Source: Mobula hypostoma (lineage: Eukaryota). From it: a stretch of DNA of 64,000 nucleotides. Shown here piece after piece: positions 11,398-44,019 of this stretch. Every line of letters begins with the position of its first letter. Within the stretch, counting starts at the first letter, position 1. The notes under the pieces are model-generated. The model was not told the DNA's origin and did no database searches. It saw only the letters and a list, made by a program, of their open reading frames with translations. Where the stretch lies: contig NC_086097.1 of assembly GCF_963921235.1 (NCBI RefSeq), forward strand, positions 91,762,001-91,826,000, in the 5' to 3' direction. The position numbers and the translations under genes were made by a program.

Positions 11398-11793
11398 ATT
11401 AACAGGAATCTACTGTACATAAGATAGATTATATACAGTGCCTATAAAAAATATTTACTCTCCTTGGAAGTTATCACATTTTATTGTTTTACAACATTGA
11501 ATCACAGTGGATTTAATTTGGCTCTTTTTTGATACTGATCAACAGAAAAAGACTTTCATGTCAAGTGAAAACAGATCTCTACAAAGTGATCTAAAATAAT
11601 TACAAATATAAAACACAAACTAATTGATTGCGTAAGTATTCACCTCCTTAATATGACACATCAAATCATCAATGGTGCACCCAATTGATTTTAGAAGTCA
11701 CATAATTAGTTAAACAGAGATCACCTGTGTGCAGTCAAAGTGTTTCAATTGATTGAAGTAAAAATACACCTGTGTCTGGAAGGTCCAGCTGCT

Positions 11794-12981
11794 CCCTACT
11801 AAAGGAGTGTTGCAGGAGTGCTGGGAAAATGGGAGGTTTCAGAGGGATACCTTTAGTCAGGTAGGGAATGATATCGCGAAAGAATGTGGAGTGTTTGATC
11901 TGAGGATGAGTCCTTCAGTAGTTTATCCGGTTGTAGCTCCATGGAAGCTTGTATGGCCTGACATAGACTGGCATTTGTTAGAGGTAAAAAGGAAAGAAAG
12001 ATATAAAACAGATTTGGTAAATGCATTTAACTGTCATGTGATGGAAAAGTATAGTGATTATACTCACATTTATATGGATGGTGCGAAGGAACCTGAAACA
12101 GGAGTGACAGGGTTTGGGGTGGTAATACCAGCAAAAGAAATTGGAATCAGCAAAAGAACATCTAGTAAGTTAGGGGTGTTTACAGTGGAGATGCTGGCAG
12201 TGTTGGTTGCGTTGCAATGGGTGCAGAAAGCCAGACAAGCCAAAGCATTGATATGTTCAGATTCATCCTCAGTTCTAGCAAGTTTAAGGTCTTTTCACAC
12301 AAACAGTTGGCAAGATGTACTTTATGAAGTCCTTCAGTTAGTTACAAGAATTGCAAATCAGGGAGGTCAGGTAAAATTTCTATGGGTTCCAGCACATGTA
12401 GGGGTGAAGGGGAATGAGAGAGTGGATGAGTTGGCAAAGAGGGTGTTAAAGAAAGAAAATGTGGAAATGCACATTAGTATCAGTAAAGCAGAGGTTAAGT
12501 GTGTAATCTGGGAAAAAGTCAACCGAATGTGGCAAGAAAGATAGGACAGGGAGGGGAAAGGGAGGCATTTATATCAAATACAAAAGAGTGTTGCAGTTAC
12601 TAGGGTAGGTAATGGAAACAGAAGAGAGGAAATAGTGTGGACTAGGTTAAGGCTGGGGCATTGTTCATTAAACAAAACATTGAAAATGATAGGGAAACAC
12701 CAGACAGGATTGTGTGAGGAATGTCAGGAAGAGGAGTCAGTAGAACATGTAGTTCTGAGTTGCAGGAAGTATGGGATACAGAGAGAAATGATGAGAAATA
12801 AATTAAGGGAGTTGGGGATGCAGGAATTCACATTAAAAGGGTTGCTGGGCATGGGTGAGAGAGCACAAGTCCGGGTATTTTTAGCATTTTTAAGGGGTAC
12901 AGGGTTTTTTTTATAGAATATGACGAATAAACAGGAATAGGATACTAGGATGGTCAAAGATGGGAGGGTGAAGTGTAGGTT

Positions 12982-13043
<62 letters not shown>

Positions 13044-13161
13044 CGCGCAATTGGGTGAAGGGAGTTAGAATGTATGTCTAGTGCACATTCTGGAGCAGAG
13101 GGTGGCGGTAATGCACCATTAAGCTGGATGCCAACCGCCGTAAAACAAGATACAGACAGAC
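11794..13161 (+). mobile_element. 5'-truncated I/Nimb-type LINE (RNase H + CCHC), relatively young
   Basis: ORF 11807-12544 is RNase H (IYMDGAKE...EMLAVLVAL...ICSDSSSVL...WVPAHVGVKGNERVDELAK). ORF 12635-12916 has TRLRLGH...CEEC..ESVEHVVLSC. 3' stem-loop GGCGGT...ACCGCC and (AGAC)n tail. Perfect 13-bp TSD AGGTCCAGCTGCT at 11781-11793 and 13162-13174. Confidence 0.9.
12982..13049. repeat. Compound (TG)n(TA)n(GC)n microsatellite
   Basis: Read directly; lies in the 3' UTR of the young I/Nimb-type copy. Confidence 0.95.
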
Positions 13162-13872
13162 AGGTCCAGCTGCTGAGGAGAATGAAGTGTCCACTGAGTA
13201 TGGCTTCCAATAGTCAGGATGCTTTGAAGGACAGTGTGAATGATTGTGCTGTCTCAGCCTTGGTTGTGCCTGGGGCTGACAAGAGCTGTGTCCCATACTG
13301 CCAGGAGTTGGAGATTTATGCTGTGGGGAAGTGCAATAAAAAGGGAATTAATAGGAGAAAGGCTGTACCATGGTGGACTGAGGATTGTGCAGAAGCAATA
13401 AGGGAGAGAGATATGGTGTTGGGGAGGTTCAGAAGTACCACACTCTGAGTGACCTTATTAAGTATAAATGTGCACAGACCACAGTGAGGAAAGTGGTGAA
13501 GGTTGTGAAAAAGATTTACTGGAGGTCATATTGTGATAGCATTGGAAGGAATATTAAATTTGGAGATATTTGGGGAATGATTAAGAAAATGGGGAGATTC
13601 ATAGGGCTAATGACATTCCAGTATTGATTAAAGAAGGTAATATAATTGTTACTGAAATAGAGAAGGTTGAGTTACTGGTAATCGTAATCAAGATAATTTA
13701 AGTGAAGAGGCAAACAATGTAGAGATAAGGCTCTAATTGAATGGCCTGATATGCTAGAGGCCAGCTGTAGCAATGACAGTATTAGTGATGTAGAGTTTTG
13801 TTTGTGTGAATTTAAGAAAGCTATTCATAATACAAGTCAGATGGCTCCCGGAAAGGATGATATACATTACTG

Positions 13873-15026
13873 CAACAAGAAGAAAATCTGCAGATACTGG
13901 AAATCCAAGCAACACACACACAATGCTGGAGCAACTCAGCAGGCCAGGCAGCACCTATGGAAAAGAGAACAGTCGATGTTTTGGGCTGAGACCCTTCAAC
14001 AGGACTGGAGAAAAAAAGATGAGGAGTCAGAATAAGAAGGTGAGTGCAGGGAAGGAAGAAACACAAGGTGGTAGGTGAAATCGGGAGGGGTGAAGTAAAG
14101 AACTGGGAAGTTGATTGGTGAAAGAGAGGGGACTAGAGGAGGAGGAATCTGATAGGAGAGGACTGAAGAAAAGGGGAGGAGCACCAGATGGAGGAGATAG
14201 GCACATAATGAGACGAGGTGAGATATGGAAATGGAAATAGGAATGGGAATGGTGAAAGGGGTGGAGGACATTACCAGAAGTTCAAGAAATCAAAGTTTAT
14301 GTCATCAGGTTAGAGGCTACCTAGATGGAATACAAGGTGTTGCTCCTCCAACCTGAGTATGCCCTCATCGTAACAGTAGAGGAGGCCACGGACTGGCATG
14401 TCAAAATGGGAAATGGAATTAAAATGGGTGGCTACTGGGAGATCCGCTTTTTCTGGACTACGGAGCGTAAGTGCTTGGCGATTCGGTCTCCCAATCTATG
14501 ACGGGTTTCACCAATATACAGGAGGCCAGACTCAGAGCACCGGATACAGTACACCAACACACTCAGAGGTGAAGAGTCACCTGACGTGGAATACTGTTTG
14601 GGGCCCTGAATGGTAGTGAGGGAGGAGGTGTAGGGGAAGGTGTAGCACTTGTTCTGCTTGCAAGGATAAGTGCCAGGAGGGAGATCAGTGGGGAGGGACA
14701 AAAGAACATGGGAGTCGCACATAGAGTGATCCCTGTAAGAAGTGGGGGGGAGGGGGAAGAAGATGTGTTTGGTGGTGCGATCTTGTTGGAGATGGCAGAA
14801 GCTCCAACCCTCCCCCTCCTGTCTTCTCCTATCATTTTGGATCTCCCCCTCCCCCTTTCAAATCTCTTACTAACTCTTCCTTCAGTTAGTCCTGACGAAG
14901 GGTCTCAGCCTGAAACGTCGACTGTACCTCTTCCTACAGATGCTGCCTGGCCTGCTGCGTTCACCAGCAACTTTTATGTGTGTTGCTTAAATTTCCAGCA
15001 TCTGCAGAATTCCTGTTGTTTGCGTG
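13873..15026 (-). mobile_element. Penelope-like element 3' part (GIY-YIG) with inverted partial pseudo-LTR
   Basis: ORF 14432-14722: LVYCIRCSESGLLYIGETRHRLGDRIAKHLRSV (GIY-YIG). Minus-strand body 13873-~14802, then a plus-strand copy of the same terminal repeat ~14803-15026. Confidence 0.85.
14888..14923 (+). ncRNA. Minimal type I hammerhead ribozyme (Penelope-associated)
   Basis: AGUC-CUGACGA-AGG GUCUCAG CCU-GAAA-C-GUC^GACU. Stem I AGUC/GACU; intact core; loopless palindromic ACGU in place of stem III. Confidence 0.75.
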
Positions 15027-18000
15027 TTATGGATGGATGGATGGTCTTTTGATTAAATTATGGAAATTAGGAGTGAGAAGGCGGCTATATAATTTGAGTA
15101 TTTTTTTATTTGGACGGTCAATGCAGGTAAGGTATGTCCGAGCTTCTATGAGATAGAGAATGGGACCCCACAAGACAGTATTTGTGGCCCTTTATTGTGC
15201 AATATTATGATTAATATTTTCTGAGATAGATACTGAGGTAGGTAAATCACCTTTTGTGGATAATAGAACTTTATGGATCAGAGATAGAAATTTCAATTTA
15301 ACTGTATATAGGAGGCAATCAGAGGTTAATAAGGTTGGACAGTGGGCAAATAAATGGGGTTTTAAGCTTTCAGTAACTAAAACACAAGTTACGTGTTATA
15401 CAGGGGATCAATAGACCTGCACTTGATTTGAAATTATATGGTCAAACTCTTGAAGTGTCATTGGTAAGATTTCTCAGCATGTGGCTGGATAATAAGCACC
15501 ATATCAGTAAAATAATTGATAAATGTAAAGAGCATTAAATATCCTCAGGTGTCTTTGTGGGTATTCTTGGGGTGCTACACAAAAATCTGACTATTTATAT
15601 TTGTTTAATTAGATCTGCACTTTATTATGGCTATGTAGCCTATGGATCAGCTTCATCATCAAATTTAAAACATCTGGATGTGATACAAGCGCAGGCTTTA
15701 AGACTGTATTGTGGTGCAGAAAGGTGGTCTCCCTTTCCGGCTTTACAGGTTGAAATGGGACAATTTACCCGTACAGTTGCAGAGGTTGAAGCTGATGTTA
15801 ACAAATTGGATTAATCTGAGGGGGCAGAGCAATGACCACCCTGTTAAAAGTGTGTTGGAGGATTGTCAGGAACACCACAAGAAGAATGTTCTTAGTTTTA
15901 GGTGGCTGGGCTCTTATCACACTGAGGTTTGCTGGATTATGCAATATGTCTCATTGTAGCTTTTATGGTAACCCCACCCTGTTTTTTTCCAATGACTTTA
16001 GTTGATTTTAGGTTGCATGATTTAATGAAGTCCAAGGCTCCTGATCTGCCTGAGAGTCTGTTGGTTCATCAATATCTTAAGAAAAATTATTATGATTTAA
16101 CAATTTTTAATAATGGATCAAAAGATAATTTAACTAGGAATGTTGGTGTGGCTGTTTTGTGCCTGAATTACAGGTAACAAAAATGTCTTACTCACCATTT
16201 ATCAGTATCCACAACCGAATTGGTTATCATCATCATTTTGGGCTAATAGTGGGTAGAAGAAATTTGTCCTCGCAAAGTTGTAATTTGTTCAGATTCTTTT
16301 TTGGTTTTGATTAGTCTTAAACAGGTTATTTTAGCAGAAGGTCAGATTTACTGCTGGAAGCTCTTCAAACTTTATTTCATATTCAAAGTATTGGTTTACA
16401 TACCTGCTTCTTGTGGGTCCCTGCACATAGAAGTGTTGAGGGTAATAAGTGGGTTGACTGTTTGGCCTAAAAGGCTGTTCAACTGTGGATACAGACATTC
16501 CACTTAGCAAATCAACAGCTAAGGGGCTGGTGGGGCTAAGAATTAGGGGATTATAGCAAGACTTGTGGGATAATGGGCATAAATGGGAAACAATTTTACA
16601 GAATAAAACAAGAAGGGAAGGAAGTGTATTGACTCAACTCAGAATCTGGCATACTATGCGTAGTTATTCCTTGTACCTTATTGGAAAACATTACTCTGGA
16701 GTGTGTAGGTTTTGTCATTATGAAACAGTTGAACACTTCTTTTACACTGTGAAGCATACAAGGCTGAAAGAAAGCAATGCAGGCTGCACTACTATCTTTG
16801 GGAGGTTGATAGTTTTTAAATGAAAACTAAGTTATGGAAGTGATTTTAATTTAATTCACAGTACAGTCTTTCATTACTTACAATCTATAGGGCTTTAGAG
16901 GTAATTTCATTTTCATTTCAAAAATAGCTAGCAGGAGTTTTATTTCCCAACACTCTACACCACACTCCAGCCCAGTTGGTGGTGGTAATGCAACTTTACG
17001 CTGGGAAGGAGGAGGAAACATCTTCTGGTGAGTCAGTATCCAGGCAAAAACTACACCATGAAGACAAAAGAACACTCCAAGCAACTCTACAAAAAGGGTA
17101 TTGAAAATTACATATCAAGAGATGGCTATGAGAAAATTTCCAAGTCCCTGAATATCCCTTGGAGTACAATTGCGTCAATCAACAAGTAATAGAAAATAAT
17201 ATGGCACAGCTGTAAAGCTACCTCGAGCCATCCTCAAAAACTGACCATGCTAGAAGGGGACTAGTGAGGGAGGCCACCGAGAGACCTATGACAGCTCTAG
17301 AAGAGTTGCAAGCTTCACTGGGTGAGATGCGAGAGACCATGCCTACAATAACCGTTGCCCGGGTACTTCACCATTCACAGCTTTATGGGCGAGTAGCCAA
17401 GAGAAAGCCACTTTTGGGGGGGGGGAAAAAAAACTCACATGAAATCTCGACCAGAAGGCATGTGGGAGACACTGAAGTCAGCAGGAGCAAGGTTCTATGG
17501 TCTGATAAAACCAAAATTGAGCTTTTTGGCCATCAAACTAAATCTATGTCTGGCATAAGCCAAACACCACACATCACCAAAAAACACACCATCCCTACCA
17601 TAAAGCATGGTGGAGGCTGTATTCTGCTGTGGGGGGGGGGGGGGGGGGAATGCTTCACTGCAGAAAGCCCTGGAAGGCTTGTGAAGGTAAAGGGTAAAAT
17701 GAATGCAGCAAAATACAAGGAAACCCTGGAGGAAAACCTGATGCAGTCTGAAAGAGAAGATTTGTTTTCTAGTAAGACGATACCCCAAGCATAAAGCCAG
17801 AGCTACACAGTAATGGCTTAAAACAACAAAGTTAATGTCCTGGAGCTTGAGGAGCCACATTTTGCCTTCTTACTAGGCACTAGGCATGTGAGTCTCTGGA
17901 CTCAATGTTGGGCTAGATCGTGCTGTTGGCCAACTGGGAATTCCATACAGAATGCAAAGGTCCAGTGGGGACAGGCTGTGGATTGTACCACCCAAGGGAA

Positions 18001-41790: not shown

Positions 41791-43049
41791 ACAGTCCATA
41801 TATTTTCCTTTTTACAATTCACTTTAATCTCTGTTATTCTATACCTGGCACATTATAGTCTGTGCATCAGTTTGAATGATTCAGTGGAACACCAGTAGTT
41901 GCAGTATATAATTTTAAAAAGCATCCACTTTTTTCATCAGTTTTTAAAAGTCTGTTTGACAAACAATCCATATAAACAAGCATTTCAAACTCAGTTAAAT
42001 CCATGGTTTTCACCATCATGCTCTATACAACAAAATTGTAACTATTGTTCATCTCGTATATTACAGTTGTGAGAATTTGATTTGCCTGAAAGTGTCAGCT
42101 TCTGTTAATGGTGAGCACTCAATTTAAATTCCGGTTTAAATCTCCAAACATAGTCTTTAGAAAAAAAGATGAACTGGAGTGAAACTATAGCAACTATAAG
42201 CAGTCTAATAAGTTACTTTCAATGAGATGATACATGGATTCATCAAAATAATAACCTGTCTTTGATTTTACACTGCTTGGATCGAGTATCATCTTTGACG
42301 CAGAATCTGGATATTTGTTATTTATTAAACATCAATCCATATTACAATCTAACAGCAGATGAAAAATGCTCCATGAAAAGGTTGAAAATGTTTTTACTAT
42401 AAATGCAATATACAAATAAATTATTTTTAAATAAATTTGCACAAGTGTAACTTGCGGGTTATTTGACTAAGATGGATAATCTTACTTTCATTGAATAAAT
42501 TGCTTCACAACAACAAAAAAGCAAAATAAAAATCAGCAGTGCCTCATTGTTACCAGTATAAAGAATATGTATTTTATGTATTCACCCAGCAGTCAGTCAG
42601 AAGCTTGTGGATCCATAGAAACGAAGATTAAATCTAGGCAGTTTTCATTATCAGAAGCAACATTTATCAGGTGAAAAAGTTAACTCCTATGCCCCACTAA
42701 CCATTTAGTTTAGTATATCACTCTAAAATTAAAACAGAATTGTACAGGGCTCTGTTTCCCTACCCTTTATTCTTTTCTTATCCAACACAAAAACAATCAT
42801 GGACTTTAACATTGTACAATTTGGCTGTTGCTTTTCCTACACAAGATCAAACACTGATACAAGTTGAGATTGTGAAAACCACAATGTTTTGCTTACAATC
42901 AGACATAAGCTTCCAACAACTGATTACCTGGTATACCAGAGACAACTGACAATACCCTCATGATGCCCTTCAAATCAATTGTGCCTCCATTTTAGACTAA
43001 GTAAATGGAAAGCATTTAAGATTGCTCTTTAAGCTTCTTGCTGGAAGTA

Positions 43050-44019
43050 TACTCAGTGGTCACTTTATTTAGTACACCTGCACACCTGCTCGTTAATGCA
43101 AATATCTGAAGACACACACTCAACTTTCCCTCTGCCATCCGATTTCTGAATGGACATTCAGTTCCTGAATTCTACCTCACTACTTCTTTATTTTTATTTT
43201 TGAACTTACTTAATTTAACGATATATACATACATACACATGCAGTTCCAATAAAAAGTTTGTGAACCCTTTGTTTTTCTGCTTAATTACTCATAAAATAT
43301 GGTCTGCTCTTCACCTAAGTCACAATAATAGCCAAACACAATCTGCATAAACTAATAGCACAGAAACAATTGCACTTCTCATCAACACTGAGTACACCAT
43401 TTAAACGAACAGAGTTAAGGTTCAAAAAAGTATGTGAATCTCTGGGGTAATGTCTTCTACAAAAGGTATTTGTAATCAGGTGTTCCAATGAACGAAATGA
43501 GATTGGAGGTGTGGGTTATAGAGATTCACGACATATGCCGATGAGATTCAACCTGATTCTCACTCTGATTCCGATTTCTAAACAGCCAATCATGTGACAG
43601 CAACTCAATGCATAAAAACATGTAGAGGTCAAGAGGTTCAGTTGTTATACAGACCAAACCAGAATGGGGAAGAAATGTGATCTAAATTACTCTGACTATG
43701 GGGTGATTTGTAATATTTCAGAAACTGCTGATCTCCTGGGGTTTGCACACATAAGTCTCTTGAGTTTAGTGCAGAAAACGAGAAGCATCCAGAGAGTGGC
43801 AGTCTGTGGGTGAAAGTGCGTTGTTATTGAGATAAGTCAGAGGAGAATGGCCAGGCTGGTTCAAGCTGACAAGAAGGTGATGGTAACTAAAATAACCACA
43901 TGTTACAAACATGATGTGTGGAGGCACACAACAGGTTAAACCTCGAAGGGAGTGGGCTACAGTAGCAGAAGATGTTGCTTATCTAGTTGGTGTGCCTAAT
44001 ACAGTGGCCACTCTGAGTG
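43050..44019 (+). mobile_element. Tc1-derived non-autonomous element with nested Rex1 tail and a second Tc1 left end
   Basis: TA + (T)ACTCAGTGGTCACTTTATT...AATACAGTGGCCACTCTGAGTG + TA. N-terminal remnant MGKKCDL...SETADLLG. Nested Rex1 3' end (~43110-43225, 43523-43577) and a CAGTTCCAATAAAAAGTTTGTGAACCC Tc1 end at 43242-~43520. Confidence 0.8.

Follow-up and report, generated by a model that had tools for sequence, protein, structure and literature searches.

How do two different long interspersed nuclear elements (LINEs) come to lie within a few bases of each other, and on the same strand, in the leader of a single DNA transposon? The question is raised by a Tc1 element in a 64,000-nt stretch of Mobula hypostoma contig NC_086097.1 (the window, in whose positions all coordinates are given). 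The original prediction had suggested sequence-specific targeting as a possible explanation, with the LINEs as hyperparasites of Tc1. Our analysis suggests that the locus is real but was partly misread, and that its strange part is likely a start-site-seeking LINE lineage rather than a Tc1 hyperparasite. With a probability of roughly 55%, I-group (Nimb-like) LINEs insert in sense orientation at or just before the transcription starts of RNA polymerase II (Pol II), guided by position, and the Tc1 promoter is one such target.

Two LINE insertions in the leader of a Tc1 element

The junctions are defined by the following features.

11434-11793, + strand: left end of Tc1, with the TA target dinucleotide at 11434-35, the terminal repeat from 11436 and the arm up to the insertion site; identity inferred from the terminal motif and the placement relative to the transposase open reading frame (ORF)
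11759-11765, + strand: TATA-like word, one mismatch; weak, one of seven such words in the arm
11781-11793, + strand: left copy of the 13-bp target-site duplication (TSD) of the young LINE, exact repeat
11794-13161, + strand: young 5'-truncated LINE with reverse transcriptase (RT) as well as ribonuclease H (RNase H), I group, Nimb-like, by domains and ORF2 similarity
13162-13174, + strand: right 13-bp TSD copy of the young LINE, exact repeat
13167-13175, + strand: candidate left TSD copy of the older insertion (7/9 match)
13176-13337, + strand: captured 5' end of the host ZNF598 mRNA, comprising 24 nt of presumed 5' untranslated region (UTR, from position alone), the ATG at 13200 and codons 1-46
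13338-17018, + strand: decayed old LINE from a second family, with RT/RNase H and 5'-truncated, starting in the endonuclease-RT linker, with a hairpin remnant at 16978-17003 and a purine-rich tail
17019-17027, + strand: candidate decayed right TSD copy of the older insertion (7/9 match)
17028-17845, + strand: remaining 30 nt of the Tc1 leader, then the dead transposase ORF, from the ATG at 17058 to residue 266 of 339, 53-63% alike at the amino acid level to protein P0074

The young LINE is flanked by a perfect 13-bp TSD, AGGTCCAGCTGCT, as had been claimed; the chance of such a repeat at one position is 1.5e-8, and its first two bases may alternatively be read as LINE tail. For the older insertion, the 7/9 match between 13167-75 and 17019-27 was recovered as well (p = 0.0013 at one position, 0.007 over five). 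The assignment to two different families, both with RT/RNase H, also held up: old and young LINE share 29-50% of their amino acids in three decayed segments and 57% of their DNA over 356 nt. Both LINEs run in the sense of Tc1, whose orientation (+ strand) is given by the HTH_SB and HTH_Tnp_Tc3_2 domains (Pfam) of the transposase, and the insertion site does lie about 30 bp before the transposase ATG, which follows 30 nt after 17028. The claim of an identical site was accurate to within a few bases but not exactly, the 5' junctions being 1 bp and the 3' junctions 5 bp apart; the latter gap shrinks to 3 bp if the two ambiguous bases are counted as tail. Insertions of both families are found 30-45 nt upstream of the Tc1 ATG and 1-5 bp from each other. 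For an element of 1.6 kb, the probability that a second insertion falls within 5 bp and on the same strand is about 0.003, and to this extent the repeated insertion in one orientation looks non-random, as the idea of Tc1 targeting would have it.

Counted from the TATA-like word at 11759, the junction interval lies 22-34 nt downstream, and the TSD contains pyrimidine-purine steps at +28 and +32. This would place the Tc1 transcription start within the TSD, which is a weak prediction from sequence. Left arms of other Tc1/mariner elements (Sleeping Beauty, Hsmar1) are described as acting as promoters (PMC6446368, PMC10138897).

The older copy had been thought to begin one base after the young one. 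Its 5' junction does lie there, but the LINE itself starts only at about 13338, and the intervening 13176-13337 derives from host ZNF598. Translation of 13200-13337 aligns with Met1 to residue 47 of a stingray ZNF598, the closest match, at 62% identity (E = 4e-4 in 5.8 billion proteins); the Pfam match to RING_ZNF598 in this piece falls below cut-off. Within 13176-13334 (159 nt, 50% GC) there is no CpG, and TG plus CA reach 20.8 per 100 nt compared to 15.1 in the window, which fits the expectation for decayed CpG-island DNA. The ZNF598 piece is fused in frame with ORF2 of the old LINE in the endonuclease-RT linker, and another member of the family, in run X1 (see below), aligns from 13338 and thus shares this junction. 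With a host RNA piece 5' of the LINE, on the same strand and within one TSD (just 7/9), the fusion has the structure of a LINE chimeric retrogene. From the tail of the old LINE it is 39 nt to the Tc1 ATG, and from that of the young LINE 38 nt to the captured ZNF598 ATG.

We also tried to read 13176-13340 as diverged ORF2, which failed for four of five references (p between 0.2 and 0.7; p = 0.008 for the remaining one). Sequencing depth over 13201-13345 is 4-12 times single copy in three runs; its low value was dropped as a sign of non-LINE origin, since parts of the LINE body are equally low. Between 13181-13209, in the ZNF598 UTR remnant, and a terminal-repeat-like motif at 43042-43069, 86% of 29 nt are alike (E = 0.01), probably by chance.

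Signs of further insertions at the Tc1 site were sought in contigs of four runs (X1, X5, X9, X13) aligned to 13056-17400, where the tables were swamped by the Penelope-like repeat that interrupts the old LINE. One X1 contig of 229 nt runs without differences from 13146 to 13374. It starts exactly 30 nt before 13176, and 13146-13175 consists of the LINE tail and 12 target bases. If contigs overlap by 30 letters (word length 31), this start is a branch point, which means that the tail and the 12 target bases are found in another context as well. They cease to be shared precisely at the base at which the window departs from the Tc1 leader; given 10,000 random flanks, such a coincidence has a probability of about 6e-4. 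One or more additional young copies at this Tc1 position are suggested; alternatively, a heterozygous or erroneous base is located there. No tail-to-Tc1 joint or other Tc1 junction occurs among the joints listed (the best 15 of 3065) and no Tc1 junction among the loose ends listed (24 of 7682; 32 pieces listed), which proves little in such an overloaded table. An empty Tc1 copy did not occur among the listed contigs of the four runs, protein scans gave no Tc1 relative in viral contigs or prokaryote genomes, and none of 39 Tc1 proteins was fused to a LINE. The summed depth of the young 3' end relative to the Tc1 ORF is 3.1 in X1, 2.5 in X5 and 0.3 in X13; depth is not copy number, and the values for X1 and X5 are a weak argument against Tc1 as the exclusive target.

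Relative to Tc1, the 3' end of the young family (13056-13200) is far deeper in organisms A and B than in organism D, which suggests a lineage-specific burst.

Flanks of related 3' ends in other fish

A pattern scan of metagenome contigs for the 3' hairpin of the LINE yielded ten loci in three assemblies, whose content points to fish DNA; the same pattern had no match in viral contigs and none in prokaryote genomes. Eight flanks were readable; the other two loci, L003 and L005, break off no more than 12 nt from the motif and do not enter the flank counts. At the 3' junction all eight differ from each other, with no shared target sequence, and none of them continues into a Tc1 leader. Similarity to Tc1 proteins is absent from all ten loci. 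The only Tc1-like DNA, and the single match of the Tc1 left arm to these loci, is a weak stretch of 43 nt about 860 nt past the tail in L008. A general rule of Tc1 targeting thus received no support from the relatives.

What adjoins the tail in eight of eight readable flanks is DNA resembling a gene start. Just after the tail, 130 CpG occur in 2131 nt (6.1 per 100); elsewhere the density is about 1.4 per 100, with 50 CpG over 3715 nt far downstream and 98 over 6263 nt upstream. Where a start codon was called, it is predicted from the sequence to lie 19-106 nt past the tail, a range that includes the 38-39 nt between tail and ATG in the window. In L007 the ATG of TMEM129 follows 19 nt past the tail in sense orientation (E = 1e-21), and in L009 a chordate protein starts 90 nt past the tail, also in sense (atlas 0.94). 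A sense ATG with a donor-like site is present, by pattern only, in L002, L004 and L008, and L006 has an ATG at the contig end. No antisense gene was found in 111 frames from both strands of seven loci, where TMEM129 alone scored above cut-off and two weak matches were in sense as well. L008 keeps an open ORF2 of 464 codons and the 3' end of L002 is 99% like that of L008, which indicates that young copies, too, sit at gene starts. The stacking seen in the window also recurs: in two of the ten loci a further 3' end, different from the main one, lies on the same strand (0 in 200 shuffles), 322 nt upstream in L005 and 93 nt downstream in L010.

Viewed in LINE orientation, the stacked element is a divergent Nimb-like 3' end with a GAA tail beside the main one, at about 820-900 in L005 and about 135-200 in L010. 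In L007 (1420-1655) the LINE tail probably forms the 5' UTR or core promoter of the housekeeping gene TMEM129. Rfam returned nothing at gathering score in the ten loci, and an alignment of the LINE to viral contigs (69 loci) gave RNase H-type matches of 21-34% only and was not used.

Proposed insertion at Pol II starts and its alternatives

If insertion is directed to Pol II starts, the locus may have arisen as follows. The Tc1 start site would lie inside the TSD, and the LINE particle may be tethered there by the initiation machinery or by open start-site chromatin. The bottom strand would then be nicked and reverse transcription primed at the nick, which would fix the orientation. First to insert would have been a chimera, as RNA or cDNA, of ZNF598's 5' end and the truncated old LINE, and later the young LINE would have struck the same promoter remnant. 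The ZNF598 piece may stem from a template jump onto the host transcript or from read-through out of a source copy that lay about 160 nt into ZNF598 exon 1. Under either route a LINE would come to lie at the 5' end of a Pol II gene; a translated read-through RNA is slightly favoured by the reading frame, which the fusion would keep by chance in one case of three. For a gene cut off from its own promoter, the LINE 3' end may act as a putative substitute. In its widest form, the proposal would be that a fish LINE lineage docks at the Pol II initiation site with nearly base-level precision and in fixed orientation, takes over the upstream promoter, provides the displaced gene with a promoter from its 3' end and captures nascent 5' ends; that many fish housekeeping promoters are stacks of LINE tails; and that transposon promoters are hit in the same way. 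This extension is tentative, and we consider it rather doubtful as a whole.

Several points weigh against insertion at Pol II starts. The TATA-like word is weak and one of seven near-matches in the arm, and an active promoter is assumed for a Tc1 that was already decaying when the young LINE arrived. The branch point in run X1 depends on the word length of 31 and is equally compatible with Tc1-specific targeting. In the eight fish loci we found no TSDs. The hairpin pattern itself contains a CpG and so favours unmethylated promoters; the old copy in the window has lost that CpG. The flank of L008 is the poorest in CpG (2.3 per 100), only two of the eight downstream genes are identified by database, and gene orientation was called in sense for these two and, by pattern, for three more, with no call for L001 and L010. 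The relatives are distant (35% amino acid identity for L008, 66-74% at the 3' end) and come from few hosts and three assemblies. The flanks read are those of these relatives and of the copies in the window; for the two ray families the evidence is suggestive and thin, and given the distance of the relatives a narrower habit peculiar to these families is conceivable. Finally, 82% of Nimb copies in salmon lie outside promoters (PMC11960703), and in zebrafish the trend is opposite, LINEs as a class being more distant from genes on their own strand (PMC9341512).

Part of this would also be expected if insertion were near-random or followed a short nick motif, with the pile-up being accidental and the link to promoters created by CpG-biased detection together with the survival of those copies that benefit the downstream gene through their 3' end. 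A repeat-rich genome yields many nested insertions, of which there are four layers here, the search pattern requires an intact CpG, and the bulk of salmon Nimb copies is situated outside promoters. However, detection bias leaves unexplained the sense orientation, the step in CpG at the tail, the young, intact copies at gene starts and the branch point at the very base where the Tc1 leader is left. A second hit within 5 bp on the same strand has a chance of about 0.003. We regard this explanation as unlikely. That the two ray families are hyperparasites of this Tc1 family and recognize its leader by sequence appears improbable to us. Two families at one Tc1 spot, the branch point with the tail and the target 12-mer in a second context, the abundance of Tc1 copies in all four runs and the precedent of Tx1L inserting into Tx1D (PMC6719617) speak for such recognition. 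Against it stand the flanks, with none of eight relatives in Tc1, and the 3' junctions, which are 3-5 bp apart; moreover, target-specific non-LTR (long terminal repeat) families mostly branched early (Tx1, R1) and do not belong to the I/Nimb lineage (PMC4640811). The greater depth of the young 3' end (2.5-3.1 times the Tc1 ORF in X1 and X5, not to be read as copy number) and, weakly, the lack of a tail-to-Tc1 joint among the best 15 of 3065 joints point in the same direction. As eight of eight relatives adjoin gene-start-like DNA, sequence-specific Tc1 hyperparasitism is not the best reading of the locus.

The older block may also not be a clean retrotransposition at all: the ZNF598-LINE chimera and the two Tc1 halves could have been joined by recombination or deletion between copies, the 7/9 match being due to chance. 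This would agree with the imperfect TSD, with the lack of an empty Tc1 copy and with other rearrangements at the locus, namely the loss of ORF2 sequence at the Penelope-like insert and of the Tc1 3' end. Yet the 7/9 match directly follows the purine tail (p between 0.001 and 0.007), and tail, TSD and leader are ordered as target-primed insertion predicts, which makes such a recombination highly improbable in our view. The spacing of the rejoined Tc1 leader would also agree with that of related fish Tc1 leaders.

The elements and their place among known systems

Within the two LINEs, further features were recognized.

11795-12916, + strand: ORF2 tail of the young LINE, one in-frame stop at 12542-44
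12062-12445, + strand: RNase H of the young LINE (Pfam RNase_H, E = 7e-15)
12713-12763, + strand: CCHC knuckle of the young LINE, C-terminal, by motif
12980-13050, + strand: compound (GT)(AT)(GC) microsatellite in the 3' UTR of the young LINE
13101-13139, + strand: 3' hairpin of the young LINE, followed by a short GACA-type tail
13875-15020 (ends approximate), - strand: Penelope-like insert within the old LINE; terminal arms inverted, GIY-YIG remnant present, about 137 ORF2 codons replaced

The young LINE encodes the final 372 residues of ORF2, which are 70% alike at the amino acid level to P0041, a full-length protein with apurinic/apyrimidinic endonuclease (APE) as well as RT and RNase H. 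Two traits of the I group are present, a CCHC knuckle at the C-terminus and an RNase H located downstream of RT; the N-terminal endonuclease is found in P0041, while both LINEs in the window are truncated before it, and ORF1 is absent from the window. The family is putatively Nimb, going by its architecture, its fish relatives and a 3' hairpin and GAA-tail signature. A representative search returned 1904 relatives of the ORF2 tail, without genomic context. Teleost relatives have simple T-rich or TTA repeats where the young LINE has its microsatellite. Rfam matches in the window were all sub-threshold, 13 of 15 falling on this microsatellite.

Relatives of the old LINE align in all four runs, and parts of the old copy have counterparts 97-99% alike in contigs from a second organism, so that the old insertion is probably older than that split. 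The Penelope-like insert, whose inverted arms are 82% alike, occurs at very high copy in all four runs; about 137 ORF2 codons of the old LINE were lost where it inserted. Membership of the host element in Tc1 is indicated by the HTH domains, the similarity to P0074 and the left TA and terminus; a right terminal repeat was not found in the window. The element is dead through frameshifts, stops and loss of its 3' end, the transposase ORF ending at residue 266 of 339 (17845); this decay would mask any disabling of the transposase by the LINEs, as the original prediction had proposed it. Unrelated sequence replaces it from 17846, and CR1-like LINE remnants begin at about 18670. There are no additional copies of either LINE family or of this Tc1 in the window. 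Probably the Tc1 element came first and received the ZNF598-LINE chimera, after which the Penelope-like insert and the young LINE arrived.

The chimera resembles LINE chimeric retrogenes formed by template switching, in which a piece of cellular RNA is joined head-to-tail before a truncated LINE within one TSD (PMC2104539). Unlike in other such retrogenes, the piece is here the extreme 5' end of a housekeeping mRNA, cut within the coding region and in frame with ORF2. A cellular RNA piece before a truncated LINE can also result from 5' transduction. As a LINE at one site of a DNA transposon, the arrangement further recalls Tx1L in Tx1D of Xenopus (PMC6719617, PMC4640811). Tx1L differs in belonging to the Tx1 clade, in lacking RNase H and in its strict sequence specificity, whereas the LINEs in the window have RNase H and their relatives do not flank transposons.

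The closest published statement concerns the same kind of element. In Atlantic salmon, Nimb is the only large transposable element superfamily enriched in promoters, with 18% of copies between -1000 and +200 (PMC11960703). The available portion of that account contains neither orientation, base-level position and stacking nor a mechanism or transposon promoters as targets. Beyond it, we found no literature on I/Nimb elements targeting Tc1 or Pol II starts, Repbase Reports and subscription journals lying outside this search, so that a prior description is possible; the available portions of PMC8633743, PMC11676430, PMC3706591, PMC9004415 and PMC4758252 likewise hold nothing on targeting of Tc1 or Pol II start sites. 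Among non-LTR elements, targeting by position has so far been described in amoebae, at Pol III genes; a preference for promoters is described for LTR and DNA transposons. If our reading is correct, it would explain the promoter enrichment of Nimb in salmon and make LINE tails a routine source of core-promoter turnover in fish; LINEs would cut DNA transposons from their promoters without recognizing them, and the lineage would be of interest for promoter-directed gene insertion.

With TRE5-A and NLTR-A/B of Dictyostelia, the lineage would share that an APE-type non-LTR element inserts at a fixed distance from a transcription start without a target sequence (PMC5911963). Targeting by TRE5-A and NLTR works through initiation factors (ORF1-TFIIIB; PMC5911963). 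Those elements belong to the L1 group and insert at Pol III tRNA genes, TRE5 in the opposite orientation, whereas the elements considered here belong to the I group and would insert in sense at Pol II starts, by a tethering that we infer. Insertion upstream of genes is likewise known from Tf1, the P element, Mutator and mPing (PMC6719617). These are LTR or DNA transposons with integrase or transposase, not non-LTR elements, and use broad windows. Tf1 supplies a substitute promoter. Taken together, the comparison suggests that the lineage may work most like TRE5/NLTR and Tf1/P/Mutator while being a member of neither group.

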